Counted from the first letter of the stretch, positions 19,444-52,560 are shown. The stretch: 64,000 bases of DNA from Acidobacteriota bacterium (GCA_034211275.1 JAXHTF010000006.1:17361-81360), one strand, 5' to 3'. The notes: generated by a model from the sequence alone, not told the origin. Made by a program: numbers and translations.

Positions 19444-19550
19444 GCCCGCATTCTACAGCCAATCGGCCTCCTACCGCCCTCCCGGCAAACAGCACCCGCA
19501 CCTCTTGACGTCCCTCGCCGTTCTGCATACACTCTCGCCTCTGACGGTTG

Positions 19551-19626
19551 CCTAGGTAGCTCAGTTGGTAGAGCACGCGACTGAAAATCGCGGTGTCGGT
19601 GGTTCGATTCCGCCCCTGGGCACCAT
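19551..19626 (+). tRNA. tRNA-Phe (anticodon GAA), including encoded CCA.
   Basis: gcctaggtagctcagttggtagagcacgcgactGAAaatcgcggtgtcggtggttcgattccgcccctgggcacca forms a canonical cloverleaf with anticodon loop cuGAAaa. Confidence 0.9.
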
Positions 19627-29841: not shown

Positions 29842-30657
29842 ATGTCGGTAAGCGAAGCCTCGGATCGTCTGTTGACTTCAGGCCCGCGGGCACTTTCCGA
29901 TATAGAGCTCCTGAGCGTGATTCTCGGCCACCGGTCGGAGATGCCGGAGCAGGTCGCTGAGCACCTGCTGGCGGGACCAGACGCCTGGTCCGAGCTGGTT
30001 CTGGCCGATTCAGCGGTGCACGAACGACCAGATCTCCAGCCCGCTGAAGCTGGTGTCGTGGCGGCGACCCTTGAGCTGGGCAGACGCCTTGCCGAACGGC
30101 GCATCCCCAAACGCAGACCACTTTCGAAGCCCCGGGCGCTCACGACCTATCTCGACCTCCGCTACGGGTACCGAGATCAGGAAGTCCTCGGCGCTTTGTA
30201 TTTGGACGCTCGCCACCGGCTACTCAGCGAGACGGAGATCTTCCGCGGGACGCAGAACCGTACCAGTGTTGAACCGGGACCAATCCTCCGCAAAGGGCTA
30301 CTGCAGGGTGCGGCCAGCGTGGTGATCTTCCACACGCACCCCAGTGGGAATCCCGCCGCCAGCGCCGCCGACATCGCCTTCACCCGCCGCCTGGCGCAGT
30401 CGGCGGATATCGTTGGGCTCAAGCTGGTCGATCACCTCATTCTGGGGCGCGGAGGGCGCTGGATGTCTTTGCTCAAGCGCGCATGGGTCACGGGACCTCG
30501 GCGCAAGCGCAAGTCGCCGCCGCCGAAATCGAAGGCCGCGAAGCCGAAGTACCGCCATCCCGAGACCGGAGAGACCTGGGCCGGGCGGGGCAGCATGGCG
30601 CGTTGGTTGCGGCTGGAGCTGGAGGCTGGGCGGTCGCTGGATGAGTTCCGGGTCTGA
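29842..30657 (+). CDS. RadC-like JAB/MPN-domain protein fused to an H-NS-type C-terminal DNA-binding domain.
   Basis: AGGAG-N9-ATG at 29842. RadC N-terminal SDIELLSVILG, JAMM motif VVIFHTHPSGNPAASAADIAFTRRL, then a basic linker and KYRHPETGETWAGRGSMARWL...GRSLDEFRV (H-NS C-terminus: KYrdPeTGkTWtGRGr.P.Wi...Gk.lddFli). Confidence 0.7.
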   Translation: MSVSEASDRLLTSGPRALSDIELLSVILGHRSEMPEQVAEHLLAGPDAWSELVLADSAVHERPDLQPAEAGVVAATLELGRRLAERRIPKRRPLSKPRALTTYLDLRYGYRDQEVLGALYLDARHRLLSETEIFRGTQNRTSVEPGPILRKGLLQGAASVVIFHTHPSGNPAASAADIAFTRRLAQSADIVGLKLVDHLILGRGGRWMSLLKRAWVTGPRRKRKSPPPKSKAAKPKYRHPETGETWAGRGSMARWLRLELEAGRSLDEFRV

Positions 30658-33696: not shown

Positions 33697-33750
33697 CGTT
33701 CCTTAGCTCTCCTGCCTAACGGGTTCTGTTCTTTTTTGCGGTCTTCGAGG

Positions 33751-34509
33751 TTACTCTGAGTTTGAGCACATCAGTTTGCCTACAAGCCTGTTTAAGAGTT
33801 CCTCATCCTCTGGAGACAAGTCCCCGAGAGCTTTCAGGCTACTTCGCAGTTTGAGTAGCTCTTCGCGAGCCCAGAAAAGCTTCTCGCTTTTTAAGTCAAG
33901 AATATTCAGGAGAAGTCGGTGTTTCTCTGACGCATCTAGTTCACGGAGAACCTCCAGTTTTTCACCTTTGTAGTACCGTTCTCTTAGATTATTCGTCTCC
34001 TTGATGGCGTTATAGATAGATCTGAGCGCTGGTAGTGCTGCTTGCATACTGGTCGAAAGTGCCGGCTCATCTTCACTTCTACTTTCACTGAGATGGGGTA
34101 CAAGCTTCTCGAGTAGGGTGCCGACAAGTTCAAAGTTCTTGCTGTGGAGTAGCTGCTCTTCAGTGAAGCCTGTCCAGTAAAGAGTTTCGGCGCTTAGAGG
34201 AGGGTGAAACTCGAGCTTGCATGAGATCTGAGCAAGGCCCTGACGATCAAAAAGTCCAGTCTTGAACAAAGACAGAGCAATGTGTTTGTCGCTCCATACT
34301 TGGACGGGCTCAGGAGTGGATTCCAAGAGTCTGCGAACCTCTTGGCGACGTTCTGATACTTGCTCTAGAAGCAACTGAAGCTGATCCCGCAGGTAGGTGA
34401 GGCGATCAAGTTCCTCTAGCGCATTGTGTGCAGGGTGCGCGAGCAGGGGAAGGGCGTTGTGCTCCTGTGGGCCCGGGGCGACAGCCTCGGGGAGTTCCGA
34501 TGTTGACAT
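33751..34509 (-). CDS. Hypothetical coiled-coil protein (252 aa); middle gene of the cargo operon.
   Basis: Heptad-rich LEELDRLTYLRDQLQLLLEQVSERRQEVRRLLE. No known domain. Confidence 0.45.
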   Translation of the reverse strand: MSTSELPEAVAPGPQEHNALPLLAHPAHNALEELDRLTYLRDQLQLLLEQVSERRQEVRRLLESTPEPVQVWSDKHIALSLFKTGLFDRQGLAQISCKLEFHPPLSAETLYWTGFTEEQLLHSKNFELVGTLLEKLVPHLSESRSEDEPALSTSMQAALPALRSIYNAIKETNNLRERYYKGEKLEVLRELDASEKHRLLLNILDLKSEKLFWAREELLKLRSSLKALGDLSPEDEELLNRLVGKLMCSNSE

Positions 34510-38227: not shown

Positions 38228-38461
38228 CTGAGGTATTAAGTCCTTGCGCCTGCTCGCAGACCATGAAACTATAGCGTAATTGGTCTAAATAGCGAGCTAC
38301 GTGCCTATTTTGCGCCTGCTACGTCCTGTTCGCAGGACTGCTAAGGTCTTAGCAGCACTTTGAAAGTGCTCGGGTCCGTAACTCAGGCGAGTCTTGCACG
38401 CCGAGGCTGCGGTTGTAGCGGCGAGCGAGCGGAATTATGGACATATCTAAGGACCGAAGTG

Positions 38462-39883
38462 ATGATTGTGCCAGGTCGAAGCCTCTTGGCTCAGGTTCTT
38501 TTCCTGCTCGGGCTCTTTTCGATCCATGGGACAGGTCTTCAAGCGAGTGAGACAGATTTCGTTGTCCCTACAAGCCGTCTCAACCTGCGCGTATGTCCAA
38601 GTGTAGACGGGTGCAGAGTTATTGAGACCCTGGAGCCAGGCCGTGTTCTAGAGGTTACCGGGGCGCAAGGAGAATGGCTAGAAGTTCTGACGGTGGAAGG
38701 TCAAGCTTCTGGTTGGGTGCACGGTGCTTATACTTCTCCTTCTGACCCCCCGTCTCAGCAACTTGGATCCGAAGAAGCGGTTGTGAATGGAGAGCCGTTC
38801 TCAGGCACCTGGCTCAACATTGCCGCTCTCTTAGTAGCCCTACTTCTAATGGCTCATATGGGATCCAATATGAGTCAAGGTCTTAGCTTTGCAAAATTGG
38901 GGATCCTCATTGCATTTAGTGGGTTACTTGGTGTTGTTCTTATACTGAATCAGTTTGGGCCGCTGCTGCAGCATTGGGTGCCTCCGTCGTTGCGGCTTCA
39001 AAAGCTAGATTTTCTTTGGGAGCCAGACCTACTCGCCGCTACTGAGGTAGGGTACACGGGCTTTCTACTGATACTGGCGGCTCTTGTATTCTCTACGTGG
39101 TTGTCTGCTCCGAGTAAAAGTGGGTGTAAGTCGTCTTTTCTCCAGGGTTTGGCTCTGGGGTTCCTGGCCGTGCCCGCGACTGCTGTGGCAGGCGCCTTGG
39201 GCTGGTTGGCCTTGAGAATTTTACTCTTCCTGTTCGTCGTTCTCGGAGTGATTCTAGTTCCTGTAGTCTGGATACTTGAGCACATAGTTGGGCCAGTGCT
39301 GCAGTGGCTTGCGACGCCACTGATATGGCTTTGGGAGAACGGTCTTAGGGATGTCGTGATCTGGCTTCTGACGCCAGTTAGATGGCTAGTAGAGACCATT
39401 CTGGCCCCAATTTCAAAATTCTTGGCAAAGTATGTTTTTATACCCCTTGGCAAGTTTGCGCTTCGAGTCTCGGTAGCACTCCTTCTACTCTTGCCGGTGT
39501 GCTTACCAGGCACGGCACTCATCAGCTCCTTCCGCACCGCGCTACGGGATCCCTTTGACTCCGTAGGCCTGTTTTCCCATGGGGTCGGGGTTGGCTTTGC
39601 ACTCTTCGACTGCGTACTCTTATCGGTACTAGCTGAGGCTGGAGTGCTCACTTCGACCCCACCCTTGAGCCTCACGTTGCTCGTTGGACTGGCCTTGGTA
39701 GGTATGGCGAGGCTGCTAATTCTTCGACTGTCTGGTCTAGAAGGAGGTGAGGACCCTCCTTTGAAGGTAAAGATTTTTCTTTACCTCCGTAGGTCTTGGA
39801 TCGAGGCTGTATTGAATGGCGTTCTGGGGCCAACTGTAATGATTCTTAGGATTGTGGCACTTGACTCTGATTCCTCTGATTAG
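38462..39883 (+). CDS. Hypothetical polytopic membrane protein with an N-terminal bacterial SH3-like domain.
   Basis: ATG at 38462 (MIVPGRSLLAQVLFLLGLFS signal), then RLNLRVCPSVDGCRVIETLEPGRVLEVTGAQGEWLEVL...GWVHGAY (SH3b-like), then at least 8 predicted TM helices. Confidence 0.5.
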   Translation: MIVPGRSLLAQVLFLLGLFSIHGTGLQASETDFVVPTSRLNLRVCPSVDGCRVIETLEPGRVLEVTGAQGEWLEVLTVEGQASGWVHGAYTSPSDPPSQQLGSEEAVVNGEPFSGTWLNIAALLVALLLMAHMGSNMSQGLSFAKLGILIAFSGLLGVVLILNQFGPLLQHWVPPSLRLQKLDFLWEPDLLAATEVGYTGFLLILAALVFSTWLSAPSKSGCKSSFLQGLALGFLAVPATAVAGALGWLALRILLFLFVVLGVILVPVVWILEHIVGPVLQWLATPLIWLWENGLRDVVIWLLTPVRWLVETILAPISKFLAKYVFIPLGKFALRVSVALLLLLPVCLPGTALISSFRTALRDPFDSVGLFSHGVGVGFALFDCVLLSVLAEAGVLTSTPPLSLTLLVGLALVGMARLLILRLSGLEGGEDPPLKVKIFLYLRRSWIEAVLNGVLGPTVMILRIVALDSDSSD

Positions 39884-40067
39884 AAGCCTATGTGTTGTTT
39901 TTGGCTGAGCTTTGTGTAGGTACTGTAAGCGAGGAATTGGAAGATCCCATCCTTGTATTTTCATCTACCATTGGCTAATGGGGGCGCTTGAGGGATGCCA
40001 AAGCTCTGCGGTCGTCGGTGGGCTTTTGCGGCACGTTTGGACGCGCTTTGACGCAGTATAGTCACTG

Positions 40068-41885
40068 CTATTGAGGTTTGATGTCAGGCATGAGGTTATA
40101 AGGAATATAGTATCCTGATATGAGCAGTGTGTGCCCGCTTTTTCCATCCTCGGGCAGGGCTAAGTCCTTGGGTACTTGGAAGGTGACTTCCTCTCCCTTT
40201 CGGAGAGTGAGGTAGTGGCCGTCGATACGGTGTAACTCACTGAGTTCGGATAGGGGAACTGCGGAGTCGGTTGGCTGAGAGCAGTCAGTGCAGATTGCTA
40301 GATAATCCAAGAAGGAGACTTCATCTTCTTCTTCTGAGAGAGTGAATTCCGTTACTCCCAGTGGGAGGGTGATTGAGTCCGTCATCTGAAACGTCCGGGT
40401 TACAGCCTCTGGGAAAACTGGTCGCAACCGAACTCTTTTTGCGTTCTTGGTGGCATAGAGGATCGGGCAGGAACCTTTTGCAAAGCCTCCCCGAACAAGG
40501 ACATTGGTTGGGTCGAAGCGACGGACAGAAAGAGAAGAGCGGGCTTTTCCAAAGCTTGCTACTATATGGTCAACGCGCCAGGAGGACCCTAGAATGTAGC
40601 TGTCCGTGATGTTCTTGAAGAAGGCCTTCTGGTCCAGTAGCTCCTTCGAGACTTCTCGAGACTTGAGGATGGCCTCTCGGTTTTGATCGATTCCGAGTAG
40701 AAACTGTATCCCAACTGCGTCGCCTGGGTACTCAGCCCACCATCTCTGTGGGAGATCCCGCTCCAAGAGTATGTTCTCTGCACCCCGATCTCCATATCTA
40801 CCATTCGATCCTAGTCTGAACTCGATTTGGAGGGGCACGAGAAGGTGTTCTCCTGGGAGCAGCTCTTCCAAGGGTACTTTCTGGGGATCAGGGTCGCTTG
40901 CCTCGAAGGCGTCGGTTTGTTCTTCTGGGCTTGTTAGCGTGAATGCCTTTCTTGATATAGATCTTGACAGAAGTCGCTCAATTGCCACTGGCTGATCGCT
41001 CACGTTTTCTATATCTAGAGAAAGCAGGGAGACCTCGCGCTGGAGTATATGCCCCGAGTAAGTGCCCCAGCTCTCTGAGAAGCGAGCCAGAAAAAGATCT
41101 TTTGGCGGGGAATCCACTGACAAGAGAGCGCGGGTAAGAGGGTCGTTAAGGTATTGAGTTGCTTCTTCTGGGCTTAGGGTGCCAAGAAAATAGAAGTCGA
41201 AGGGTCTAAGGGGCTGCTTGAGAATCTGGGCGCGATCATCTGGGGCAATAGTCCAGTAGGGGCTATCAAGCAGGCGTTTCTCAAGAGTTGATGCCTCTAC
41301 GTTCTTGATTAGAGGGCCTGCTCTAAGGGGCCTCAAAGATCCGAATAGGGGTTCTCGCAAGCGTCGCCATTCGTCCCTGTCGACGACTCCTGGTATATCT
41401 TTAAAGAATTCTTCCTCTCCTTTATTTCCCATGAAAACATTCATGGCGTCATATGGTAGCCGATGCTCTGGCGCATGAGCACTAATGCCTCCGCGCATCT
41501 TAGTTGCGCCCTTGATGGTGTACCTGATGACCTCTTCTAGATCCTTGAAAATGTCATTTTTTAACCAGTATGGTTCGAATAGAAAACCCTCCTTCTCGGA
41601 GAATGCATAGCCCTTCAGGGCGCGATCAAGAAGCAGTAGGCCATCTAGGCGAAGGTAGGATATTCGGAGATCCCTGTCTTGTGGTCCGGAAGCCTCATCC
41701 AATTTGTCGAAGTTTGCCTTGCCCATTCTACTATTTCTTGCTGAGTCATTGGGGCAGGATCCAGTGAGAAACAAGACCAAAGAGATCGCCGGGCCGAGCA
41801 CTCCTGCAATGCATCCAATATAAGTGGCTTTGGAAGGCAAATGCCATTTATTCCACTGTGTGCGTGTGGGGATGAGTTTCTTCAT
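40068..41885 (-). CDS. Hypothetical large membrane-anchored protein (605 aa), low GC (~48%).
   Basis: N-terminal TM helix YIGCIAGVLGPAISLVLFLTG. The large domain has no motif I can assign. Confidence 0.5.
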   Translation of the reverse strand: MKKLIPTRTQWNKWHLPSKATYIGCIAGVLGPAISLVLFLTGSCPNDSARNSRMGKANFDKLDEASGPQDRDLRISYLRLDGLLLLDRALKGYAFSEKEGFLFEPYWLKNDIFKDLEEVIRYTIKGATKMRGGISAHAPEHRLPYDAMNVFMGNKGEEEFFKDIPGVVDRDEWRRLREPLFGSLRPLRAGPLIKNVEASTLEKRLLDSPYWTIAPDDRAQILKQPLRPFDFYFLGTLSPEEATQYLNDPLTRALLSVDSPPKDLFLARFSESWGTYSGHILQREVSLLSLDIENVSDQPVAIERLLSRSISRKAFTLTSPEEQTDAFEASDPDPQKVPLEELLPGEHLLVPLQIEFRLGSNGRYGDRGAENILLERDLPQRWWAEYPGDAVGIQFLLGIDQNREAILKSREVSKELLDQKAFFKNITDSYILGSSWRVDHIVASFGKARSSLSVRRFDPTNVLVRGGFAKGSCPILYATKNAKRVRLRPVFPEAVTRTFQMTDSITLPLGVTEFTLSEEEDEVSFLDYLAICTDCSQPTDSAVPLSELSELHRIDGHYLTLRKGEEVTFQVPKDLALPEDGKSGHTLLISGYYIPYNLMPDIKPQ

Positions 41886-42035: not shown

Positions 42036-43160
42036 ATGCCTCTAAATATAAACCTCCTTCCCAAAGATCTTACCACTCTCCGCCAAAACACCCACTGGCG
42101 TGACCTCTTCAGCGCCCTCCAGATCCAAAAGGATCCGAAGAAGTCCAAAGGCTCGGATTGGTGGGGCAAGAGCCCCTTCCGGCCGCAGGAGAACACTGCG
42201 TCGTTCCACATGAACGCCCGGGGCTGGTACTGCCACGCTACCGGTCAGGGTGGTGGGCCAATCGAGCTTTTGCAGCGGCTGCATCCAGGGATGAGCTGCT
42301 ACGACGCCGGACGTTGGCTCCTAGATCATGGTGTGAGTCGCATTGTCGAAGGAGTGCGCGAGGAAGTCGCGGCTGCTGAGAGTGAGCCGGAGGAGGAAGT
42401 CCGTGAGAATCCACCGATCCGGCAGGATCTTAGGTCGCAGCTCGCGCCCGTGCATCCCAGCTTCGAAGAGCGTGGGATTCCTGCGCAGACGTTAGAGATT
42501 CTCGGTGCTGGGTACTTGGAGCGTCCGCCGCGGAAGAGTGGTAAGCCCGATCCGATGAACCAGCGGCTGGTCTTCCAGATTCGCTCGCTCCGGTCGAACG
42601 ACGCCGGCGACCTGGTGCCGGTGATCGTGGGGCATATGGGACGCGCTACCAGCGTCGAGCAGGCGGAGCAGGACGGCAAGTGGTGGACATACGGTGGGTT
42701 CCGCAAGAGTTTGGAGCTCTACAACGTGGATCTCGCGGTCTTGAATCCGGAAGCGCGGGCTCAAGCGGCGGAGACCGGCCATGTCCTGGTGGTCGAGGGC
42801 TGCTTCGATGTTGCCAAGCTCTACGCCGCGGGGATCAAGAACGTCGTGGCCTTATTCGGCAGTCGGCTGAGCGAGCGCCAAGCCGAGCTGCTGGCGACGT
42901 TAGCTGAAGAAGTTGGTGTCGAGCGCCTGCGCTTCTTTCTGGATCGCGATGAAGCTGGCCAGCAAGGGACGGCGTCCGCTCAGGAGCTGCTCCTTCGAGC
43001 GCCGGAGGAGAATCCTGGTCTCGTGGTCGACTCCTTCGACTGGGGGCAATCCTGGCAGTCTCCTGTCCGTGGAGCCGTGCAGATCCCTGCCTCGATCACC
43101 GATCCCTGCGACTTCTCTCTGGGGCAGCTGCAATGGCTGCGTGCGGAGGGCCTTCTCTAA
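42036..43160 (+). CDS. DNA primase (CHC2 zinc finger plus TOPRIM), mobile-element type.
   Basis: SKGSDWWGKSPFRPQENTASFHMNARGWYCHATGQGG (CHC2 zinc finger), and VLVVEGCFDVAKLYAAGIKNVVALFG (TOPRIM E...D). Confidence 0.75.
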   Translation: MPLNINLLPKDLTTLRQNTHWRDLFSALQIQKDPKKSKGSDWWGKSPFRPQENTASFHMNARGWYCHATGQGGGPIELLQRLHPGMSCYDAGRWLLDHGVSRIVEGVREEVAAAESEPEEEVRENPPIRQDLRSQLAPVHPSFEERGIPAQTLEILGAGYLERPPRKSGKPDPMNQRLVFQIRSLRSNDAGDLVPVIVGHMGRATSVEQAEQDGKWWTYGGFRKSLELYNVDLAVLNPEARAQAAETGHVLVVEGCFDVAKLYAAGIKNVVALFGSRLSERQAELLATLAEEVGVERLRFFLDRDEAGQQGTASAQELLLRAPEENPGLVVDSFDWGQSWQSPVRGAVQIPASITDPCDFSLGQLQWLRAEGLL

Positions 43161-43170
43161 CTTTCCCTTC

Positions 43171-44058
43171 TTGAAGACTTCTTCTCTCCATCGAGAATTC
43201 CGGCAATACGCTCTCGCTGATCGTGGCCTCCAGCCGCGGACCGTTCGCGACATCGTGACCATCGTTGGTCGACTGACCGCCTTCAGCCGCACAGAGCGGC
43301 TCGCCAAGCTCACCACGCCGCTCATCCAGAGCTTCCTGCGGCATGGACGGATGGAGAAGGGCTGGGGCACTCGGACCTTCCGACTCTATCGCCAGTACCT
43401 GAAGGCTTACTTCGAGTGGTGCGTCCGAGCTGGCTATCTTGCGGAGAATCCCGTATCCCCCATCGAGAAGCCGCGGCTCCCTCAAAGCCTGCCGCGGTGC
43501 CTCTCTCATCGGGAAGCCCGTCAGGTGCTCTACGCTGCGCGCCACGCCTCCTGGCCAACCGAGCTCCAGCGCTGCCGCAGCGAAGCGATGGTGGCGACGT
43601 TCCTTATGACTGGTGTGCGCCGGGCAGAGCTCCTCCGGCTCGAGGTGGCGGATCTCAGTTTTCGGGCTGGGACGATGACGATCCGCGCCGGCAAAGCTCG
43701 GAAGGATCGGACCATTCCGCTCCATCCCCAGCTGGTGCCGATCCTGCTGGGCTACCTGGAGGAGAAAGGGCGCCAGAAGAGGGAGTCGCTGTTCCTGTTC
43801 TCCAGCATGCGTTCCGAGAAGCCGCTCACCGCGAAGAACCTCTACGCCATCCTGGAGCGCGTCGCCCGCAAGGCTCGCGTCAAGTTCACGCCCCACATGC
43901 TCCGCCATACCTTCGGTCGCGAGCTCGTCGAGGCGGATTTCAACGTGTACAAGCTCAAGGAGGTGATGGGGCATGCCAGCGTAGCGACGACGCAGAGCTA
44001 CGTGGCGCTGTCCTCGAAGAGCATCAAGGAGAGTTTCGAGCAAACGAGAATTTATTGA
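43171..44058 (+). CDS. Tyrosine recombinase (XerC/XerD-like phage integrase family), the second on the island.
   Basis: N-terminal SAM-like LHREFRQYALADRGLQPRTVRD...; catalytic region ...RAGKARKDRTIPL...HMLRHTFGRELV...GHASVATTQSYV (R..H-R-Y). The start is uncertain: TTG at 43171 or GTG at 43141 just after the primase stop. Confidence 0.7.
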   Translation: MKTSSLHREFRQYALADRGLQPRTVRDIVTIVGRLTAFSRTERLAKLTTPLIQSFLRHGRMEKGWGTRTFRLYRQYLKAYFEWCVRAGYLAENPVSPIEKPRLPQSLPRCLSHREARQVLYAARHASWPTELQRCRSEAMVATFLMTGVRRAELLRLEVADLSFRAGTMTIRAGKARKDRTIPLHPQLVPILLGYLEEKGRQKRESLFLFSSMRSEKPLTAKNLYAILERVARKARVKFTPHMLRHTFGRELVEADFNVYKLKEVMGHASVATTQSYVALSSKSIKESFEQTRIY

Positions 44059-44188
44059 GACGAAGCCGCTAGGAGGCTTCAGCCGCCAAGCCGGACCGCT
44101 GACGAGCTGGCTGGTTGAAAAGCCAGCTGCTCTATCTCCAGAAGCTGAGAGAGTTGAGCAGGTGACTGCAATCGCCAATCAACCATGG

Positions 44189-46471
44189 TCAAGCTAGTCC
44201 CGTCAATCGCTGTGAGCCTCCAGAGCGATCACTGTGTGACTGTGCGGCAGATCGCAGCAGGGCTTCCATTTCTTTGAAATGCGCCGGGGCTACTGATTTA
44301 ATAAGCGTCATCACATCCGCCATGACCGGCTGAGCTTCTGAGAGCTGAGACATATCTTGGTCGGCCGAGGACTCGAAATCTTCATTGTGAGAGAATGCAT
44401 GAGTGAATCTTACAATCCTAGTTGCCCGAACTGGCTCGCCATGGGAGAGTTCCTCGATTGCTCTTTCGAAGCTAGACCTGCGTGTGGGTCTGTGAAAACT
44501 AATGAATGCCTCTAGAAGGCGGCGCGCAGTATTGGGGAGATGACAAATTTCCTGATCGTGCAATGAGTCAGCCTGGGCCGCCGAGTGCACTATAGAAAAT
44601 AAGTAGTGATATTCAGATTCGAAAGTTCTGAGTAGGTAGTCCAGGGGCTGGAGAACTGCTTTACGCTCTCCGCTCGAATCAAGAAGAGCCTTCAGGGAGT
44701 AAAGGGAGCTGTTCTTCCTGTCTCCCAGGAACCACCTGCGAACGAGTCGAAAGAACGTGAAGTTGTGCGTCAAGATGAAAAGCTGCTTCGCCCCTACTGT
44801 CTTCGCGCGGATGAAGCTGAAGGCATTGAAGAGCGCATTCGAATCAAGGCTTGAGACGGGGTCATCTAGTACAACAATACCCTCCGAGACCTGGAAGGTC
44901 TGATCATGGAGACTCTGGAGGAAATAGAGAAGAGCGATTGCGGTGCGCTCACCTTCACTAAGACCCGTTGCTACAGATGTACCCGACCTAACTATCTGGT
45001 ATCCTTTCCCGAAAAGTTCAAAGCTTAGCTCGTCTCGGCCTAAGTACCTTCTAAGGTCTTTCGTGAGCTGTTCGGCTGAGAAGCTATGGGGATCAACGCG
45101 GCTCTTGATCTCCTTGACCTTCTCTTCAAGCTTCTGGATAGCCTTCCTGGAGGTCTTCTCATTCTCTCTGCATGCCTGTAGATCCTTCAAGAGCTGTGAG
45201 CGCTCATCTCCAGCCTCTGCAATGTGATGCTCTTCAATCTCTTTGCAAGCGCTATCCGCTCTGTCCTGGAGCGACTTCGTCTGCTGGTTGTGACTCAAGA
45301 TAATTGCATTAATAGACGCAATAGAGGAAGCCAGGTCAAGCTGAGTGTGAGCAGGAGGAATGGCAGGCGTCGAAAAAGGATTTGCTCGCTTCTCCTCCAA
45401 GCAGGCCTGGATTATCTCTAGCCTCTCAAGGTATGCCTCGATTTGTTCCTTGAGCTTGGCGCTTGCGGAGCGGTAGGAGTCAAGGTGATCCTGATACAAT
45501 TCTCCCTCTGTCGGAAGAGTATGTCTCACCAGAGTCTCGCGAGAGGTTGCTATTCCTTCCAGCTGCCTTTCTATGTCCTCCGTGAGCTGTCTGTGGCCCT
45601 GAGCAAAATAGTCTTCAAGTGCTTTGAGTCGCTCCTCTTCCAAGTGGTTGCCGCAGAAGCCGCACTGTTCCGCTTGGATGGCACGATGTAGCTGAAGGCC
45701 AGTGTCAACCCAGTTTCGCAAGTCTGAATTACTCTCCAAGGCCTCCATGGACTGCCGGGTTATGCTTCGGCTGAGAACCTCAGAAGCCGCTTCTTCAATA
45801 GAAGAGATGTTTGGATCCTGAATTGAAACGCTGTGCAGGTCGGGCCGCGGTTGCTGATTCTTTGTATGGGCAAGCGCCTTTAGTTCATCATCAGTTCTGA
45901 CCAGCTCGGACATAGGCCTACTGGACAGTTCGTCTGCTCGTCGTTCGTAGTCGTTTCGCTTGTAGTGTTGGTAACTCGGATTCCCGAGGAGCCGATCTTT
46001 GATTGCCTTTGCGGTGTCCTGCTGGTGTTTAGCCCAAGCGTTGTTTGCGGTCTTGGTTTCATTCTCGGCCTGAATCAGCTTCTTTCGCTCTTCCCTGAGC
46101 AGACTGGAGATCTCTTCCAGTTCTTTTTGATCAGCGATGTTCTCCTGTCCGAGAAAGACAATCCCGGGCATTCCTGACGGATTAAAGACGTTCTTCTCGA
46201 CGAAGCTCTTGGTGAAGACTTTGATTGGGATCTGCTCCAGCGCAGCCTCATTGCTGCTGTTAATCTTCTGGTTCTCAAGCTGAACCTCAAAAGAGCTGTT
46301 AGGGTTCTGAGTTCCAGTCTCGATCTGTCGCATGATCTCGACTAGAGAGGTCTTGCCGGCTCCGTTCCATCCGTAGATAAGGTTGTAGCGGCTGAAATCA
46401 TCGAGGCCAGGAGGCCAACTGAAATCTTGGAATAGGGCCGGTGCTTGAATTCGGAGAAATTGCTTGATCAT
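44189..46471 (-). CDS. RloC/PrrC-like AAA_13-family ABC ATPase (putative anticodon nuclease / abortive-infection protein) with a CxxC zinc hook.
   Basis: 760 aa. Walker A LIYGWNGAGKTSL. A long coiled coil carries AEQCGFCGNHLEE (CxxC). ABC signature/Walker B SEGERTAIALLYFL...GIVVLDDPVSSLDSNALFNAFSFI...LFILTHN. C-terminal HLPNTARRLLEAFISFH...FTHAFSHNED gives Arg/Glu/His spacing like the PrrC ACNase triad. GC is ~45%. Confidence 0.6.
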   Translation of the reverse strand: MIKQFLRIQAPALFQDFSWPPGLDDFSRYNLIYGWNGAGKTSLVEIMRQIETGTQNPNSSFEVQLENQKINSSNEAALEQIPIKVFTKSFVEKNVFNPSGMPGIVFLGQENIADQKELEEISSLLREERKKLIQAENETKTANNAWAKHQQDTAKAIKDRLLGNPSYQHYKRNDYERRADELSSRPMSELVRTDDELKALAHTKNQQPRPDLHSVSIQDPNISSIEEAASEVLSRSITRQSMEALESNSDLRNWVDTGLQLHRAIQAEQCGFCGNHLEEERLKALEDYFAQGHRQLTEDIERQLEGIATSRETLVRHTLPTEGELYQDHLDSYRSASAKLKEQIEAYLERLEIIQACLEEKRANPFSTPAIPPAHTQLDLASSIASINAIILSHNQQTKSLQDRADSACKEIEEHHIAEAGDERSQLLKDLQACRENEKTSRKAIQKLEEKVKEIKSRVDPHSFSAEQLTKDLRRYLGRDELSFELFGKGYQIVRSGTSVATGLSEGERTAIALLYFLQSLHDQTFQVSEGIVVLDDPVSSLDSNALFNAFSFIRAKTVGAKQLFILTHNFTFFRLVRRWFLGDRKNSSLYSLKALLDSSGERKAVLQPLDYLLRTFESEYHYLFSIVHSAAQADSLHDQEICHLPNTARRLLEAFISFHRPTRRSSFERAIEELSHGEPVRATRIVRFTHAFSHNEDFESSADQDMSQLSEAQPVMADVMTLIKSVAPAHFKEMEALLRSAAQSHSDRSGGSQRLTGLA

Positions 46472-46732
46472 GACTAGGTGGAATCATAATGCAAGAAGAT
46501 GGCATCCGAAAAGGGCATCTTAGGTGCTAGAAGATGGTAGCCTTGAGAAAATCAACATCGAGCCGGCATTTCTGGTTGACGCGCGGGTGGAGGAGAAGCT
46601 ACCTTACAGGTACTCAAGGCGAGTCTTGTGGTCACAAGTCCAGCCGAGCTTCACTTTCAAAAATCACCGGAAACCCGCATCCAGCCTACTGATTCGTGGC
46701 TTCGCCCAGGTCCGTTCTGGCTGGGGGTCGTG

Positions 46733-46765
46733 TGGTCGCAGGTTCAAGTCCTGTCTCCCCGACCA
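46733..46765 (+). other. Orphan tRNA 3'-end fragment (T-arm, acceptor 3' strand, ACCA), probably an att-site remnant.
   Basis: tcgcaggttcaagtcctgtctccccgacca has a T-loop TTCAAGT and ends in CCA. No matching 5' acceptor strand (cggggag) was found within 120 nt upstream. It lies 100 nt upstream of the third recombinase gene. Confidence 0.5.
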
Positions 46766-46866
46766 AAATCCCCTCCAACAGCGGCTTTCCGGGCGATTCA
46801 AGGGAAGAGATCAGGGCCCCGGTGACCACATGACCGAGTCATGAGGTCACTCTAACCCCTCTTCCC

Positions 46867-47769
46867 ATGCCCTCTGAATTGCGCACCTGGCACGAAGCTT
46901 TCTGCCAGCACTGCCTGGTCATGAAGCGCCAGTCGCCCTACACGGTCCGCGGGTACCGCGACACCCTCAATAGCTTCGTCAAGTACACCGGCGCAGCGGC
47001 CCTCGCCGATGTGACGCTGGCGAAGGTGGAGTCCTGGATCATGACCGGGACGACGCAGTGCCAGTGGTCACCGGTGACCAGCCGGGGCCGCATCAAGTAC
47101 ATGATCCTGTTCGCCAAGTGGTTGGTGAGCCGGGGGCATCTGGAGTCGAATCCGCTGGAGGGAATTAGCCTGCCCTCTATCCCGAAGAAGATTCCGCGGT
47201 CCCTGTCGCGGGAGCAGGCTGAGCAGCTTCTGCGCTTCGCCCGGAACTTTTCCTTCCAGACAGAGTTCGAAGGTGCCCGTGCCTACGCAATTCTGGCGAC
47301 CTTCATTTACACCGGCATCCGCAAGAGAGAGCTCCGCGAGCTGGAGCTCCGTGACGTCGATCTAGAGAACGGGATCCTCGCGGTGAGGGAGGGAAAGGGG
47401 GCCAAGGATCGGATGGTCGCCATCCCGCCCCAGCTGGCCTTGGTCCTGCGCGAGTACCTGAAGCACCGCCGCAGTCCGAGATATCAGCAGCTTCCGTACT
47501 TCTTCGTCGGAGCTACGGCCCTAGGTGGTGTCGGCAACGAGGCAATCCGTCGCTTGGTGAAGAAGCTCCGAGATGCCAGCGGCATCTACTTCGCGCCCCA
47601 CATGCTCCGGCACACCTATGCCACGCTGATGCTGGAAGGCGGCTGCGACCTGTTCAGCCTCTCGAAGCTGCTGGGGCACGCGGATATCAAGACGACTACG
47701 GTGTACCTGTCCGCTTCGGTGAGGCACCTTCAGAAGGAGGTGTTGAAGCATCCGGTTGTCGTTCACTAG
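46867..47769 (+). CDS. Tyrosine recombinase (XerC/D-like), the third on the island.
   Basis: 300 aa, ...AILATFIYTGIRKRELRELELRDV...GKGAKDRMVAIP...HMLRHTYATLML...GHADIKTTTVYL gives the R-H-R-Y catalytic set. Confidence 0.75.
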   Translation: MPSELRTWHEAFCQHCLVMKRQSPYTVRGYRDTLNSFVKYTGAAALADVTLAKVESWIMTGTTQCQWSPVTSRGRIKYMILFAKWLVSRGHLESNPLEGISLPSIPKKIPRSLSREQAEQLLRFARNFSFQTEFEGARAYAILATFIYTGIRKRELRELELRDVDLENGILAVREGKGAKDRMVAIPPQLALVLREYLKHRRSPRYQQLPYFFVGATALGGVGNEAIRRLVKKLRDASGIYFAPHMLRHTYATLMLEGGCDLFSLSKLLGHADIKTTTVYLSASVRHLQKEVLKHPVVVH

Positions 47770-47891: not shown

Positions 47892-49601
47892 GTGAAAAGA
47901 GTGAGACGAAAGAGAGAGAGACAGTTCAAGGGGGCCAAGTCAGCTACGAGGCAAGCCTTATTTCTATTGAAGGCATGCGACCTAGATTGGCTCTGGAAGT
48001 TCTGTGCCCTCATTTCCTGTCATGATCTATTTGGGCCAACACTTGCTGAGGGTGCCAATGCCCTTTATGTCAATTTCGCCAAGACTAGGGCTCTTGTTGA
48101 TCTTGTGCTGAAGTCCGGGGCCAGAGATGATGTGGATAAAATACTCCATATGGAAGAGGTGCGAGATCTCCTTAACTTGCTAGTTGATGTCCAAAATGAT
48201 CCAGAGGTTTTCAAGAGCGCAGAAAAGGCGAAGGGGACTCCGGCGGCGGCTTTTGAGTTCCATCGATCTATGTGCAGGCTAGGTAGCAATCAGACTGCTG
48301 ACCAGGAGGGGGTTTTCTGGAATGCAGCAGGTCGACTAATTGCTAAATGGGAGCTCCTGCCTCTTGAGAACCAGAGCCTACTTCCTAGTCGAGAACGACA
48401 GCGCGTCTTGGAGGTAGCTCATAGGATTCCTGAAGTTCTTGGTGCTGAGATATCGGAACTGAGTCTGGTCTGCTTGGCAATATTTCAGGTGTATAGGGAT
48501 GCCTACGCGAATCTTTCTCGCACACTTCCCGTCATACCGCACGAGGCTTTTTGCAGCCAATATGAGAAAAGGCAAGCACTTGATCAGCTGATGACGGCTC
48601 TGGAGGCTGGGGGATTCAGCGATCTATTGGTGATAAATCCCCGTCGTCTCCGGGAAATGCTTCGCGATAAGGAAGGCTTGGTTGATTCCTATCTTTCTCT
48701 CTTCAGTCGGTCTGTTGAGGAGCTTCGCTCGCTGCAGAAGGATTATTCTGTGGGTCAGTCACCTCACTACAGCCGAGATTTGAGCGTGCTTGATCGCTTT
48801 CCGCTTGTTAGGAGGGCCGATGGAACCTATATCGTGCCGAATGTCCGGTTTCTTTTGAAAAGTTTCGTTCCCAATGTCGAGTTCACCCTGGTTGAGCTTC
48901 TAGGTGACAATTTCTGGCACGCGAACGGGGCGACTCAAGAGGCTTATCTTCTAAAGCTACTCTCGGCCCGTCTTCCAGGATACACGCTGGTGGAAGAGCG
49001 AGCCTATGGAAAGCAGGAACTCCGGGGACCTGATGTCACTATTGTTGATGCTCAGGCGGAAGGTCTAATACTTGTGGAGTCGAAAGGAAAGAGGATTGGG
49101 GCGAGAACGAGGTTTGTTATGTCTGATGATCTTCTTGATGACAACCTGAAGGTCGCCTACTCTGCTCTACAAGGCCTGCCGGTGAAATTTGAGGCTTTAT
49201 TGAGTGGCATCCCAGAGTATGCTGATGCCCAAGATGCTCTAGATTCCGCGCGGTCGAACTCCCCGATTTGTGTTGTGGTTATGAACGACTCGGTCATGAT
49301 GATGAGCGAGCTGATTCGTATGTTGATTGCCATGAATCCTGAGCACCAACTTCAGGGGTTTCCTTTTCAATTTTGCATTGTCGGAATCGGAGCCTTCGAG
49401 CTAGCAGTGGAAGTGGCGAGTAGGAATGGTAGCTCGTTGTACAGGTTGCTTTCCCAGCACTGGGAGAGAAGCGCCGAGATCGATCCTGGGAGAGGCTCTG
49501 CTGACCTGTTTGGTGGATTCTGGCCGGATACGGAGCCGGCTTTTGGGGCAGAGTTACTTAGGGCGAGGCTGAAGAGTAGGCTTGGCGATCTCGTTGCGTG
49601 A
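47892..49601 (+). CDS. Hypothetical protein (569 aa) with a C-terminal PD-(D/E)xK nuclease-like motif, low GC.
   Basis: ...RGPDVTIVDAQAEGLILVESKGKRIGA matches the D-x(n)-(D/E)-x-K restriction-endonuclease-fold core. The N-terminal 380 aa are unassigned. GC is ~48%. Confidence 0.5.
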   Translation: MKRVRRKRERQFKGAKSATRQALFLLKACDLDWLWKFCALISCHDLFGPTLAEGANALYVNFAKTRALVDLVLKSGARDDVDKILHMEEVRDLLNLLVDVQNDPEVFKSAEKAKGTPAAAFEFHRSMCRLGSNQTADQEGVFWNAAGRLIAKWELLPLENQSLLPSRERQRVLEVAHRIPEVLGAEISELSLVCLAIFQVYRDAYANLSRTLPVIPHEAFCSQYEKRQALDQLMTALEAGGFSDLLVINPRRLREMLRDKEGLVDSYLSLFSRSVEELRSLQKDYSVGQSPHYSRDLSVLDRFPLVRRADGTYIVPNVRFLLKSFVPNVEFTLVELLGDNFWHANGATQEAYLLKLLSARLPGYTLVEERAYGKQELRGPDVTIVDAQAEGLILVESKGKRIGARTRFVMSDDLLDDNLKVAYSALQGLPVKFEALLSGIPEYADAQDALDSARSNSPICVVVMNDSVMMMSELIRMLIAMNPEHQLQGFPFQFCIVGIGAFELAVEVASRNGSSLYRLLSQHWERSAEIDPGRGSADLFGGFWPDTEPAFGAELLRARLKSRLGDLVA

Positions 49602-49830
49602 TCTCCTGGTTCTGGGCTCGGATGAGAATGCGCCTGGCTGAGAGGATGAGCGGGTGCCTTCGCGTGCTGGGTGGTGAGACGATGGTTCTGAATCAATTTG
49701 GCAGCAAGGCTCGGCGCAATGGCTAGCAAGAGATCCTTCCTTGTTGGATTATTCTGGAGCAAGATGATCTGTCTTGGGGGGTATTGTGGGAATAGGAAGA
49801 GAAATTTCTGATATCGGTGGGAGGTGATTA

Positions 49831-50766
49831 TTGAAAACGATTTGGAGGGTGTTGAGGGTTTCTCTGGGCTGGCTATCTCGTTTGTTCATGGGGTTCATCA
49901 AGCTACCCAAGAGAGGATGGCTTTCCTACGCGCGATGGGCTGAGAGGCATCGGGGCGGGATACCCGCTATCCAGCTCCTTTCTAGCGTGGCTTTTGCTGT
50001 TATGTCGGTCATAGTCTCTTCTCTTGCGATTAATCTCGCCCGGGAGCAGAATCTTCTGGTTGAGCGCCAGGTGCAGCTTGCGGATGAGCAGGGTGAGCTT
50101 GCGAATAGGCAGCTCGCTCTGGCTGAGGCTCAGATCAAGCCGAAGATCAGGTTAAGATACAGATCAGAGTGTAAGAGTGGAGAAGTCTGTCCTTTCGGAG
50201 ACTACGACTGTGTCGAGTTTTGGAACGATTCTGGGCCTCTCGAAGGTCTCAATGTAATGCAGCATAGCTTTCTATTGGTGAGTCGAAATGATAGGCCTAA
50301 TGAAGAAGTACGTTATGTTCCTATGTACTATCTTCAGTCGAGGCAGCTGACGGGGGCCGGTCGGGGGTTACTTGGTACTTTCTGCGCTTTTATGAAGGAG
50401 GTGAATTCTCGCAATAGAACGGCGAAAGTCGAGAAGATAAGATCTTCCCTCTGGGAGAGAGGGGTATTCAATATTGACGTGAGAGTTGTGCTTAATTTCT
50501 TGTACGTAGATCTTCTCGGGAGGAAATATGATGAGTTCTACTTGGCTCCTGCGGGGGCCTTTTGGTCTGGAGATCTACCGGCTACCATACTTTCCCCTGA
50601 AGAGGCTAAGCAGGCTTGGGAGATGGGTTTTGCAGAGCCTTGGTTCGGTGATCCTGTGATGCTAGGTAACGCACTTGACACAATTGATCATAATTATTTA
50701 GAGCGGAACTGGGACAGCTTACCGGTGGTGCGGCAGCCTCTATTAGAGACCTTGCAGGTTCGCTAG
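49831..50766 (+). CDS. Hypothetical membrane-anchored protein (311 aa) downstream of the nuclease-like gene.
   Basis: TM helix IQLLSSVAFAVMSVIVSSLAINLA, then a coiled-coil stretch. No motif. Confidence 0.45.
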   Translation: MKTIWRVLRVSLGWLSRLFMGFIKLPKRGWLSYARWAERHRGGIPAIQLLSSVAFAVMSVIVSSLAINLAREQNLLVERQVQLADEQGELANRQLALAEAQIKPKIRLRYRSECKSGEVCPFGDYDCVEFWNDSGPLEGLNVMQHSFLLVSRNDRPNEEVRYVPMYYLQSRQLTGAGRGLLGTFCAFMKEVNSRNRTAKVEKIRSSLWERGVFNIDVRVVLNFLYVDLLGRKYDEFYLAPAGAFWSGDLPATILSPEEAKQAWEMGFAEPWFGDPVMLGNALDTIDHNYLERNWDSLPVVRQPLLETLQVR

Positions 50767-51009: not shown

Positions 51010-52170
51010 TTACTCGTAGGCTCTCAAAGCCGCCGCCAACTCCCCCGACACCCTCTCTGCCGCCTCCTTGAGGGGATCATCCGCCAGATGCGCATACCGC
51101 GCCGTAGTCGCGGGCTGGGTATGCCCCAGAAGCCGGCCGATGATGGGCAGGCCAATCCCAGCGCCGGCGGCGAAGGCGGCGTGAGTGTGGCGGAGATCGT
51201 GGAGGCGGACGTCTTCGAGGCCTGCCGCGGTTCGGATGCGGTCCCAGGGGCGCTGGAGGCCGACTAGGCGCTGGCCCTTGCGGTAGCCGGCGCAGACGAA
51301 AGGGTTGTCCTCGCGTCGGGGCGCTTCCACCAAGAGCTGCAATGCGGCGGCGCCGAGGCGAATCACTTTCTGGCCGGTCTTCGAGTCCGGCAGCCTCAGA
51401 CAGCCCTGCTCGAAATCCACGAAGGACCACTGGAGCTCCAGGATCTCGTTGCGGCGAGCGCCGGTGAGGATCAGCAGGCGGATGGCGAGGAGGGCTGAGG
51501 GATGCTCGGTCTCATGGCGCTCGGCCTCGGTGAGGGCCTCGCCCAGGCGACCGAGCTCGGCTGCGGAGAGGAATCGCTCGCGCTTCTGTTCCTTGTAGCG
51601 TTCCACGTGGCGGCAGGGATTCGAGTTGAGGGGGCGGAGGCCCCAGCGCTCGGCGAGGTTGAACATCTTCGAAAGCAGCGCCAGGACCCTGTTGGCCTGG
51701 GTTCGCTTTTGGCGCATCTCGTAGTGCAGGGTCGAGATCTGCTCCAATTGGATGTCTGTGACCCGGCGCTTGCCGAGCTGCGGGAGGACATAGAGGCGCA
51801 GGAGCCGCTCATCGGTCTGAGCGCTGGAGGCCTTCTTCTTGACCCGGGCGTGCTCCTCCAGATAGCGCTCCGCCAGATCAGCCACGGTGGGGGCGCGGCG
51901 CTGGTCCTGCCGGACCTGGCCCGGATCGTTGCCGAGAGTGACTTCCGCCAGGACCTTCCGAGCCCGGTCACGGGCCTGCTCGATGGTCAGGACTCCGTAG
52001 CGGCCCAGGGAGAGGAATCGCTTGCGGCGCCCAACGCGGTAGGAGACCAGGAAGTACTTCTTGCCCGACGGGTAGATGCGGACTCCAAAAGCCGGGAGAG
52101 TGTCGTCCCAACGGTAGTCTGTGCCTCCCTCATAGGTGGCGGAGTCGAGGGCGGTCTTGGTCAGTCTCAT
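51010..52170 (-). CDS. Site-specific tyrosine integrase (P4-like, DUF4102-type N-terminus) of the island.
   Basis: MRLTKTALDSATYEGGTDYRWDDTLPAFGVRIYPSGKKYFLVSYRVGRRKRFLSLGRYGVLTIEQARDRARK (P4-type arm-binding N-terminus). Catalytic ...HDLRHTHAAFA...GHTQPATTARYAH. The ATG at 52170 was verified. The longer track ORF (to 52422) reads antisense through the tRNA-derived repeat. Confidence 0.85.
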   Translation of the reverse strand: MRLTKTALDSATYEGGTDYRWDDTLPAFGVRIYPSGKKYFLVSYRVGRRKRFLSLGRYGVLTIEQARDRARKVLAEVTLGNDPGQVRQDQRRAPTVADLAERYLEEHARVKKKASSAQTDERLLRLYVLPQLGKRRVTDIQLEQISTLHYEMRQKRTQANRVLALLSKMFNLAERWGLRPLNSNPCRHVERYKEQKRERFLSAAELGRLGEALTEAERHETEHPSALLAIRLLILTGARRNEILELQWSFVDFEQGCLRLPDSKTGQKVIRLGAAALQLLVEAPRREDNPFVCAGYRKGQRLVGLQRPWDRIRTAAGLEDVRLHDLRHTHAAFAAGAGIGLPIIGRLLGHTQPATTARYAHLADDPLKEAAERVSGELAAALRAYE

Positions 52171-52374: not shown

Positions 52375-52488
52375 GACTGAAAATCGCGGTGTCGGTGGTT
52401 CGATTCCGCCCCTGGGCACCATTTCAATCTCCCAAAAAGCAAGAGCTTGTGTCCGATACGAAGGTCCTCCTTGGAGGGCCTTTTTTGG
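52375..52488. repeat. attR: right copy of the tRNA-Phe-derived direct repeat.
   Basis: Matches tRNA-Phe from the anticodon loop to the 3' end plus downstream sequence; see attL. Confidence 0.85.
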
Positions 52489-52560
52489 TGCTTGGGCTGA
52501 AGGGACTTGGTCCGGAGGGGCTCGAGTGGGAGCGTCTCGTGGCGTTTCTGAGAACCCTAG

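Follow-up and report, generated by a model that had tools for sequence, protein, structure and literature searches.

A divergent RloC-family gene as probable cargo of a paired-recombinase integration module in a mobilizable island from an Acidobacteriota bacterium

Introduction

RloC proteins are composed of ATP-binding cassette (ABC) motifs, a coiled-coil/zinc-hook insert, and an Arg-X3-Glu-X36-52-His signature in which Ser often precedes the His (Davidov and Kaufmann, PMC2610378). In the Geobacillus kaustophilus member, GkaRloC, the triad is R692/E696/H737 (PMC2610378). This enzyme excises the wobble nucleotide, and its nuclease is activated by a DNA-dependent ATPase (PMC2610378, PMC3458546). 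PrrC of Escherichia coli, a protein of about 400 aa, lacks a coiled-coil/zinc-hook insert and is invariably encoded within a type I restriction-modification (R-M; hsd) locus. Tycheposons are tRNA-targeting elements with Xer-like integrases and anticodon-loop-type attachment (att) sites. Described here is a locus that touches on each of these systems: a rloC homolog in a 64,000-nucleotide stretch of DNA from an Acidobacteriota bacterium (GCA_034211275.1 JAXHTF010000006.1:17361-81360). The whole stretch is called the window, and positions are counted from its first letter.

The rloC homolog lies between the genes of two Xer-type tyrosine recombinases and beside the 3' half of a tRNA-Pro(GGG). 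The recombinases carry the working labels RecA-like and RecB-like, which are unrelated to the RecA strand-exchange protein. The gene very probably encodes an RloC-family abortive-infection enzyme, carried as cargo between the RecA-like stop codon and the unrecombined att site (attP) of a conserved integration module in a mobilizable island. The 2.5-kb low-GC segment with rloC would be cargo in a module made up of a primase, RecA-like, attP (the tRNA-Pro(GGG) half plus flanking binding-site repeats), and RecB-like. This module would be shared by a family of mobilizable islands that encode a relaxase, a coupling protein, and RadC and, in this lineage, a P4-type integrase. Because integration would have gone through the P4-type integrase at a tRNA-Phe gene, the RecA/RecB attP would have stayed intact and unrecombined, leaving the two recombinase genes as neighbors that appear to bracket rloC.

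The paired-recombinase module

The backbone gene that precedes the recombinase pair encodes a Toprim/DnaG-like primase (42036..43160, +; Pfam Toprim_4, E 3e-10). It is syntenic in L082, L083, L085, L090, L091, and L172-L174, where L-numbers denote contigs of relatives. The RecA-like gene (43171..44058, +) encodes a 295-aa Xer-type tyrosine recombinase (Pfam Phage_integrase, E 9e-33 to 5e-33). An earlier note, made from the window sequence, had this gene run from 43141. The gene is real, but its start is most likely the TTG at 43171, not 43141 or 42913, because homologs align only from there and the longer open reading frame (ORF) overlaps the primase. The homologous gene of L090, whose product is 71% identical over 295 aa, has an equivalent start codon. 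The RecB-like gene (46867..47769, +) encodes a 300-aa recombinase of the same type (Phage_integrase, E 9e-29) with 260 homologs, the closest of which are 60-98% identical. RecA-like and RecB-like are 29% identical to each other, and both keep the catalytic blocks. They lie on the same strand and flank rloC, as the earlier note had described.

The NCBIfam XerC/XerD models give 155.5/139.3 bits for RecA-like and 173.2/155.4 bits for RecB-like, against cut-offs of 335/330. Since these scores fall far under the equivalog cut-offs, both proteins are classed by profile as Xer-like recombinases and not as housekeeping XerC/XerD. The earlier note had raised the possibility of ordinary Xer paralogs conserved in all relatives. 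Conservation at this position is indeed observed, but at 139-173 bits against about 330 the proteins are not ordinary Xer. An integron was also considered and rejected: with the integrase_gron model the recombinases reach 61-92 bits, where the cut-off is 265, and no attC-like or inverted repeat bounds rloC.

A 360-aa ORF runs antisense over the RecA-like gene (43096-44178, -; L001 3142-4224) and has no family match. On the Logan contig it is called instead of the recombinase. The call is probably an artefact of GC-rich DNA and would hide the RecA-like recombinase from annotation-based screens.

The tRNA-Pro(GGG) 3' half occupies 46721..46765 (+), 101 nt 5' of the RecB-like ATG, and was read from the sequence against ordinary tRNA-Pro genes. 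Its 45 nt comprise the anticodon loop CTGGGGG, the 3' anticodon stem, the variable loop, the T-arm, the acceptor strand, the discriminator A, and CCA. A shorter piece, T-arm plus ACCA at 46733-46765, had been noticed earlier; the fragment is real, but its extent had been underestimated. Neither ARAGORN nor Rfam finds a complete tRNA at 46721-46765, and no complete tRNA-Pro(GGG) gene is present in the 64-kb window. The half is kept in L082-L090 and L172, with rloC present or not, and is near-identical where the flanking intergenic DNA has diverged (alignment A2).

Repeated sites flank this block. The palindrome GTGACCACATGAC-cga-GTCATGAGGTCAC (46822..46850, +), a probable recombinase-binding or operator site, is located 17-45 nt 5' of the RecB-like ATG and is conserved in L085, L086, L088, and L090. 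Across relatives it takes the form GTGACCACATGAC-cga-GTCATG(T/A)GGTCAC. In L082 both arms are changed with the symmetry preserved (TGACCATACG...CGTATGGTCA). On the RecA side of attP, the palindrome arm occurs a third time, as the half-site GTCTTGTGGTCAC (46623..46635, +). It stands about 45 nt past the RecA-like stop in relatives where the slot is empty (A2, A3, A5).

Contigs of 11 RecB-like relatives (60-98% identity) were compared. rloC is absent from nine of them (L082, L083/84, L085, L088/89, L091, L092, and L172-L174), and in eight of these nine the primase gene is followed by the 295-aa RecA-like gene, a short gap, and the RecB-like gene. The contigs of L088/L089 start inside the RecA-like gene, too late to include a primase gene. 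Without rloC, the gap between the recombinase genes is 284-289 bp in L082, L083, L085, L088, L091, and L092 and about 260-340 bp in L172-L174, and the tRNA half is located within it. The primase, RecA-like, the tRNA 3' half, and RecB-like form one conserved unit, independent of rloC, in about eleven mobilizable islands.

The identity of the tRNA changes with the lineage. An Ile(GAT) half takes the same position in L091, L092, L173, and L174, and a Lys, Cys, Met, Thr, Arg, or Gly half is found at this spot in more distant lineages. Among RecB-like loci with enough upstream sequence (n=78), a plus-strand T-arm motif occurs within 250 nt 5' of the start in 54, and in none of the control windows placed 1.5 kb away.

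Integrated forms are seen in relatives whose RecB-like proteins are 37-40% identical to that of the window. In L122, a complete tRNA-Thr(TGT) is located 81 nt 5' of the RecB-like gene, and the RecA-like gene follows on the same strand after another 6.5 kb. At 1.3 kb past the RecA-like gene, 49 bp of the tRNA, starting in the anticodon loop, are repeated perfectly. The same layout is present in L119 (41-bp exact repeat), L163 (30-34 bp), L147 (44 bp, 89%), and L134 (41 bp, 83%). In these integrated relatives RecB-like adjoins the tRNA (attL) and RecA-like stands at the attR end, with the whole element in between. From the integrated order attL(tRNA), RecB, cargo, RecA, attR, it follows that the circular or unrecombined form would be RecA, attP, RecB, as in the window.

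Since the att repeats of integrated relatives place the recombinases at the element ends, the tRNA-Pro fragment is best read, from sequence comparison, as the intact attP of the RecA/RecB module. The earlier proposal of an orphan scar left by a cassette was not borne out. The identity block starts at the anticodon loop, the same type of start as in the island's own tRNA-Phe repeat.

Several features of related modules stand apart. L110 has a complete tRNA Lys(CTT), not a half, between its RecA-like and RecB-like genes (7407-7480), and the recombinase gap of L164 holds a complete tRNA gene with anticodon TTA by ARAGORN. The simple attP model alone leaves these complete tRNAs unexplained. Many RecB-like genes adjoin a block of the form GAAGGAG.AGGTC.CCGGTTCAA.CCCGG.CAACGGCTC (L119 ~440-520, L111 ~7860-7950, L163 ~7894-7930, and others). 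This block includes a T-arm and receives no tRNA call from ARAGORN or Rfam. The Rfam LOOT RNA motif is found in two small elements of the RecB...RecA type, at L119 1929-2048 (+) and L147 12464-12582 (-), with 84 and 74 bits against a gathering score of 46.

Alternatively, RecA-like and RecB-like could provide Xer/cer-like multimer resolution for an excised, primase-replicated island, with the tRNA block and palindrome as the resolution site and rloC adjacent by chance. The P4-type integrase already serves integration, and the primase and relaxase suggest a plasmid-like phase. The recombinases are short and Xer-like, have no arm-binding domain, and are encoded beside a dyad-symmetric site; in the close subfamily only the unrecombined arrangement is seen. 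However, a resolution site gives no reason for a precise tRNA 3' half that begins at the anticodon loop and whose identity depends on the lineage, and the relatives integrated at tRNA genes carry their recombinase genes at the element ends. Moreover, the PLSDB plasmids contain no RecB-like relative at E 1e-30. Resolution is an unlikely role for the pair, with some chance left to it, and an attP with its two recombinases is the preferred reading.

The RloC protein

The rloC homolog (44189..46471, -) encodes a protein of 760 aa, inside the published RloC range of 658-897 aa. The sequence is that of a Rad50-like ABC ATPase into which a coiled coil with CxxC is inserted, followed by a predicted C-terminal anticodon-nuclease domain. 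Pfam AAA_13 covers the whole protein (E 4e-149), and PADLOC assigns it to the candidate family PDC-S06 (E 6e-211). The PADLOC model of PrrC aligns to aa 522-702 (E 3e-10), which includes the nuclease region. A large protein search returned one identical protein, from an Acidobacteriota metagenome-assembled genome, and otherwise matches of at most 36% identity; many of the homologs carry the name 'wobble nucleotide-excising tRNase'. Campylobacter jejuni RloC (P0090) matches with E 9e-37 at 96% coverage and 22-23% identity. Besides the identical protein and the copies in L086/L087, the closest relative found is the L090 RloC (759 aa, 41% identity).

Conservation was read from two homolog alignments, one of 12 sequences (A1) and one of 72 (A6). 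The Walker A motif GWNGAGKTS (aa 34-42; 46346..46372, -) has G34, N36, G39, and K40 invariant in A1; in A6 the same holds for N36, G39, and K40, while G34 is nearly invariant. The CGFC zinc-hook motif (aa 270-273; 45653..45664, -) lies in a loop between long helices, and C270 and C273 are invariant in the 72 sequences. The ABC signature LSEGE (aa 504-508) and the Walker B/D-loop IVVLDDPVSSLD (aa 532-543) span 44843..44962 (-), with S505, E508, D536, D537, P538, S541, and D543 invariant. The longer blocks LSEGERTAIAL and VVLDDPVSSLD correspond to aa 504-514 and 533-543, and the switch His is H569. K40, S505, E508, D536, D537, D543, and H569 are invariant among the 72 homologs, and G507 is invariant or nearly so.

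The anticodon-nuclease motif is R650-x3-E654-x40-S694-H695 (44387..44524, -). E654 is invariant, and R650, S694, and H695 are kept in at least 90% of the 72 homologs and are invariant in A1. The spacing is identical to that of GkaRloC. The triad stands in the context ARRLLEAF...FSH, and the PN.ARRLLE.F and SH blocks are shared with bona fide RloC. The homologs lack the 20-residue C-terminal tail of the window protein.

An AlphaFold (AF2) model built on the 72-sequence alignment has a mean predicted local distance difference test (pLDDT) score of 85.7. It predicts a split ABC head (aa 1-100 and 482-610), a helical C-terminal domain (612-749), long helices at 109-160 and 279-477, and the CxxC loop between helices 249-265 and 279-315. 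The best fold match in the PDB is Rad50 (7zr1_C, E 4e-7), followed by SMC heads, RecN, a Lamassu (LmuACB) subunit, and AriA. A sequence search of the PDB found no solved RloC or PrrC, and only a weak match to the Rad50 head.

Judged by sequence and predicted fold, the 760-aa protein is a divergent yet complete member of the RloC family that carries all of its sequence-level defining features. Every motif named in the earlier note for the ORF at 44189-46471 (Walker A, CxxC, ABC signature, D-loop, and R/E/H triad) was read in the sequence and is conserved in the 12 + 72 homologs. Its proposal of an RloC-type zinc-hook ABC ATPase with an anticodon-nuclease triad agrees with the profiles, the homologs, the AF2 model, and the Rad50 fold match. 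None of the 19 larger island ORFs scanned, among them all rloC neighbors, has an Hsd or R-M domain. PADLOC, Pfam, and NCBIfam scans of the neighbors revealed no partner gene.

A mechanism of three steps may be proposed. By homology with Geobacillus RloC (PMC2610378, PMC3458546), the protein would dimerize through its ABC heads and zinc hooks. The Rad50-like head would then sense DNA ends or phage-associated DNA damage, and ATP hydrolysis would free the C-terminal nuclease (R650/E654/H695). The nuclease would excise the tRNA wobble nucleotide, translation would stop in the infected cell, and phage infection would be aborted. The motifs that each step requires are present and conserved.

A rather less probable alternative than a resolution role for the recombinases is that the protein lacks anticodon-nuclease activity and has another role as an AAA_13 ATPase, for example in conjugative transfer or DNA repair for the mobile element. 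The AAA_13 family of Pfam is broad, transfer genes are present in the island, and the top fold matches are Rad50/SMC DNA-repair ATPases; in addition, some RloC orthologs may be inactive (Davidov and Kaufmann, PMC2610378). A different role would nevertheless leave unaccounted for the R-x3-E-x40-SH motif and surrounding blocks, which are conserved with bona fide RloC, and the PrrC model that spans the nuclease region. It is also at odds with the related islands that lack rloC, since the gene is dispensable for transfer there.

rloC as cargo of the module

The cargo insertion is 2,538 bp long (44059..46596, no strand assigned) and was delimited by blastn against L088 and by junction alignment (A5). 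L088 is the closest rloC-less relative, with RecA-like 90%, RecB-like 89%, and the P4 integrase 91% identical. Its positions 1-571 correspond to window 43488-44058, and 588-1751 correspond to 46597-47760. In L088, 16 nt replace the 2,538 nt of the window, and 44058 is the last base of the RecA-like stop codon. Besides rloC, the segment has only flanks of 130 bp (downstream) and 125 bp (upstream). The half-site, tRNA block, and palindrome are left intact (A5). The absence of the segment from an otherwise similar island that aligns on both sides is what the earlier note had asked for.

The insertion has a GC content of 0.514 and rloC of 0.511, about 11 points under both flanking recombinase genes, which together with the primase stand at 0.62. 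rloC is not the lowest-GC gene of the window, as had been claimed: five other island ORFs are at 0.497-0.509.

Related islands carry RloC in the same slot. The L086/L087 contigs, with RecB-like 98% identical, have the same rloC, and the N-terminal 116 residues of their RloC are 83% identical. In L090, where RecA-like and RecB-like are 71% identical, an RloC of 41% identity occupies the same slot in the same orientation. A distant module, L111 (RecB-like 41%, RecA-like 25%), has an AAA_13/RloC gene, 28% identical, between RecA-like and a tRNA-like block. RloC diverges much faster than the flanking backbone, as seen in the RecB/RloC identities of 98%/83% (L086 26-373, N-terminal 116 residues) and 71%/41% (L090). 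Elsewhere the slot holds a HicA toxin with a neighboring small ORF (L101), Fic/Doc (L143), or ORFs without a named function (L145, L122). The position between RecA-like and the att site is a recurrent cargo slot favored by toxin-type genes.

The association with recombinases was also viewed from the side of RloC. Among 80 loci of RloC homologs from species-representative genomes, a tyrosine recombinase is found within 10 kb in 12 and brackets the gene in none; the screen used phmmer with three queries, and distant recombinases may be missed. Since none of the 80 loci is bracketed, the association is a property of the element family and not of RloC, and the arrangement in the window is non-standard for RloC, as the earlier note had remarked.

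Scans for promoters and terminators gave counts no better than those in shuffled sequence. A terminator between the convergent RecA-like and rloC genes (hairpin ~44106-44128) is not claimed: the hairpin folds, but its z-score is -1.1 and there is no U-run. Short imperfect copies of the RecA-like 3' end (ATCTATTGA-like) are present at both junctions.

A nested integrative cassette moved by the two flanking recombinases, with the tRNA fragment as one att scar, is highly improbable: the gene does lie exactly between two intact recombinase genes, beside a tRNA 3' fragment, with foreign GC, in a 2.5-kb segment that varies in presence among close relatives, but the window search found no second tRNA-Pro fragment marking another cassette end and no direct or inverted repeats around rloC beyond chance-level short matches, the recombinase pair and fragment are adjacent and conserved in nine rloC-less relatives, the boundary falls at the RecA-like stop, which leaves the conserved binding-site repeats outside it and the tRNA block 125 nt away, and it is the whole element, not the slot, that the recombinases delimit in integrated relatives. 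The earlier note was right in spirit in seeing a defense hotspot near recombinases inside a larger island; the cassette delimited by both recombinases is the part that falls, as the unit is conserved without rloC.

Some points weigh against rloC as the cargo of such a module, or limit how far this reading reaches. Identity between the window protein and other RloC proteins is only 22-41%, and the comparison with the nearest characterized one, from G. kaustophilus, was made through published motif positions rather than by direct alignment. Enzymatic activity, trigger, and anti-phage function are predictions by analogy for this protein. Only unrecombined tRNA-Pro sites are present in the window and its close subfamily, where no integration at tRNA-Pro was seen. 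Recombination of this site by RecA-like and RecB-like, and their joint action on attP, are proposals, and the integrated examples come from relatives with RecB-like proteins of 37-40% identity. The segment may represent a gain of rloC in the window lineage or, elsewhere, a loss from an ancestral filled slot, and the junction repeats fit either. Finally, a functional tie between RloC and the module stays conceivable to a degree, given that three lineages (window/L086, L090, and L111) have RloC at this position.

The tRNA-Phe island

The module is part of a 32.8-kb island bounded by tRNA-Phe and a 63-nt repeat. The integration target, tRNA-Phe(GAA) (19550..19625, +), was found by ARAGORN and Rfam and includes the start of the attL repeat at 19579-19641. 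The attR (52375..52437, +) repeats the tRNA-Phe 3' half over 63 nt that start at the anticodon loop and run past the end of the tRNA; it is 98% identical to 19579-19641. Next to attR lies the gene of the P4-type integrase (51010..52170, -), which has an Arm-DNA-binding domain (Pfam Arm-DNA-bind_3, E 3e-16; Phage_integrase, E 8e-20). Its start is likely Met85 of a long ORF whose upstream part reads through the tRNA-Phe repeat. With further genes for a MobA/VirD2 relaxase, a TraG/VirD4-type (T4) coupling protein, and a RadC-H-NS fusion, the island is an integrative mobilizable element inserted in tRNA-Phe.

Backbone genes of the island have a GC of 0.62-0.67, and cargo blocks of about 0.50 are found at 32122-34509, 38360-41885, rloC, and 47892-50766. 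The last of these (47892..50766, +) is a second low-GC cargo slot, between RecB-like and the P4-type integrase. It contains ORFs of 569 aa and 311 aa with no Pfam or PADLOC match. The 569-aa ORF has a faint match to the NCBIfam antiphage model GapS1 (31 bits against a cut-off of 320). In relatives this slot holds a CHAT gene (L088) or an AAA_15+DUF4435 pair (L172) and is empty in L083 and L090. Since relatives hold CHAT or PARIS-like genes in the slot, the 569-aa and 311-aa ORFs are candidate defense genes.

Equivalent slots of relatives contain type I R-M (L083), ParE (L085), a PIN-domain protein (L082), Gabija-like OLD/UvrD (L173), PARIS-like AAA_15+DUF4435 (L172), and a CHAT protease (L088). 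The element family is a defense carrier.

Other parts of the island and its surroundings are of interest in their own right. The blocks 32122-34509 and 38360-41885 encode ORFs of 524, 252, and 605 aa and a 507-aa SH3/membrane protein, SH3_3 being the one family assignment. At 29758-30657, a single ORF joins a RadC-like JAB domain to an H-NS C-terminal DNA-binding domain. The region 19901-29376, inside the island and of host-like GC, encodes surface-type proteins of 1509 aa and 1292 aa. These have Glucodextranase-B, Big, CarboxypepD_reg, LVIVD, and TSP3 repeats and are unusual cargo compared with the relatives of about 20 kb. The DNA downstream of tRNA-Phe, including a hairpin and T-run, is duplicated (19635-19692 and 52432-52489, 83% identity), which suggests that the island brings along a tRNA terminator of its own. 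Beyond the island, a tRNA-Asn at 59773-59847 has the unusual anticodon ATT by ARAGORN (Rfam tRNA, 58 bits). Directly 5' of it (region 59760-59847) is a T-arm-like 3' end (GTTCGATTCCCCACC), and GC dips at 59-60 kb and 62-63 kb. The 59-60 kb region may be another integration site.

Significance and comparison with known systems

A divergent, Acidobacteriota-associated RloC that travels as cargo of a mobilizable island would help to explain the patchy distribution of RloC. Many proteins that pipelines label 'XerC/XerD' may be tRNA-site integrases, often paired around an attP with defined cargo slots, and this anatomy is testable. It offers a rule to delimit islands in metagenome-assembled genomes and to mine their slots for defense and toxin genes. 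It also carries a caution: a gene between two recombinases need not be mobilized by them.

A broader proposal is put forward tentatively, its chances being somewhat short of even. Paired Xer-like recombinases around an attP could represent a widespread, undescribed class of tRNA-targeting elements, with one recombinase per integrated end, a lineage-specific tRNA, and, where the distal recombinase meets att, a recurrent landing pad for genes of abortive infection or toxins (RloC in three lineages, HicA, and Doc). In the window they would form a second, alternative integration system. If so, the island could choose between tRNA-Phe and tRNA-Pro, or drive rearrangements with a chromosomal tRNA-Pro gene. 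Open-access papers yielded nothing specific on paired tyrosine recombinases flanking a tRNA attP, which is weak evidence of novelty.

Among anticodon nucleases, the window protein is closest to RloC (GkaRloC; C. jejuni rloC; COG4694, 'wobble nucleotide-excising tRNase'), with which it shares the CxxC coiled coil that splits the ABC ATPase and the spacing of the triad. Here it is a solitary gene without linked R-M, the usual case in the 2008 paper (PMC2610378). It differs from known RloC in its 22-23% identity to the C. jejuni protein, the extra 20-residue tail, and an integration-module context unseen in 80 genomic RloC loci. ABC motifs and an Arg-Glu-His nuclease triad are common to it and PrrC. 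The size, the lack of an insert, and the hsd setting of PrrC are not found in it, and membership was rejected on its 760 aa, coiled-coil insert, and absence of hsd neighbors.

The module has much in common with tycheposons: short Xer-like recombinases by a tRNA 3' half, a primase, an att block from the anticodon loop to the 3' end, a correlation between integrase lineage and tRNA, and defense cargo. Tycheposons have a single inward-facing integrase, whereas here two paralogous recombinases are present, one on each side of attP and one at each end once integrated. The window module also differs in being unrecombined, inside an island integrated by a separate P4-type integrase.

P4-like satellite and P2 prophage hotspots and Gamma-Mobile-Trio (GMT) islands likewise consist of conserved mobility genes that frame variable slots for defense or toxin genes. 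The slot genes of the present family are type I R-M, PARIS-like, Gabija-like, ParE, HicA, Doc, and RloC. GMT islands also have paired tyrosine recombinases, but the proteins described here score only 15-31 bits on GmtY/GmtZ. GMT membership was rejected, with GmtY at 18-31 bits against a cut-off of 340, GmtZ at 15.5 bits against 600 (RecB-like only), and no GmtX equivalent identified. The backbone is different as well, and the elements come from Acidobacteriota-type metagenomes.

XerC/XerD and TnpA/TnpB of Tn554 are, like the pair here, two paralogous tyrosine recombinases encoded together with a dyad-symmetric site nearby. The present pair differs in scores far under the XerC/XerD cut-offs and in its target, a tRNA half rather than dif or att554, on which the two would act jointly. 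Compared with all of these systems, RloC is an already known family, of which the window protein is a divergent new member, and a defense gene as mobile cargo is expected. The less familiar part is the paired-recombinase attP module, with its lineage-specific tRNA targets and its defined toxin slot.

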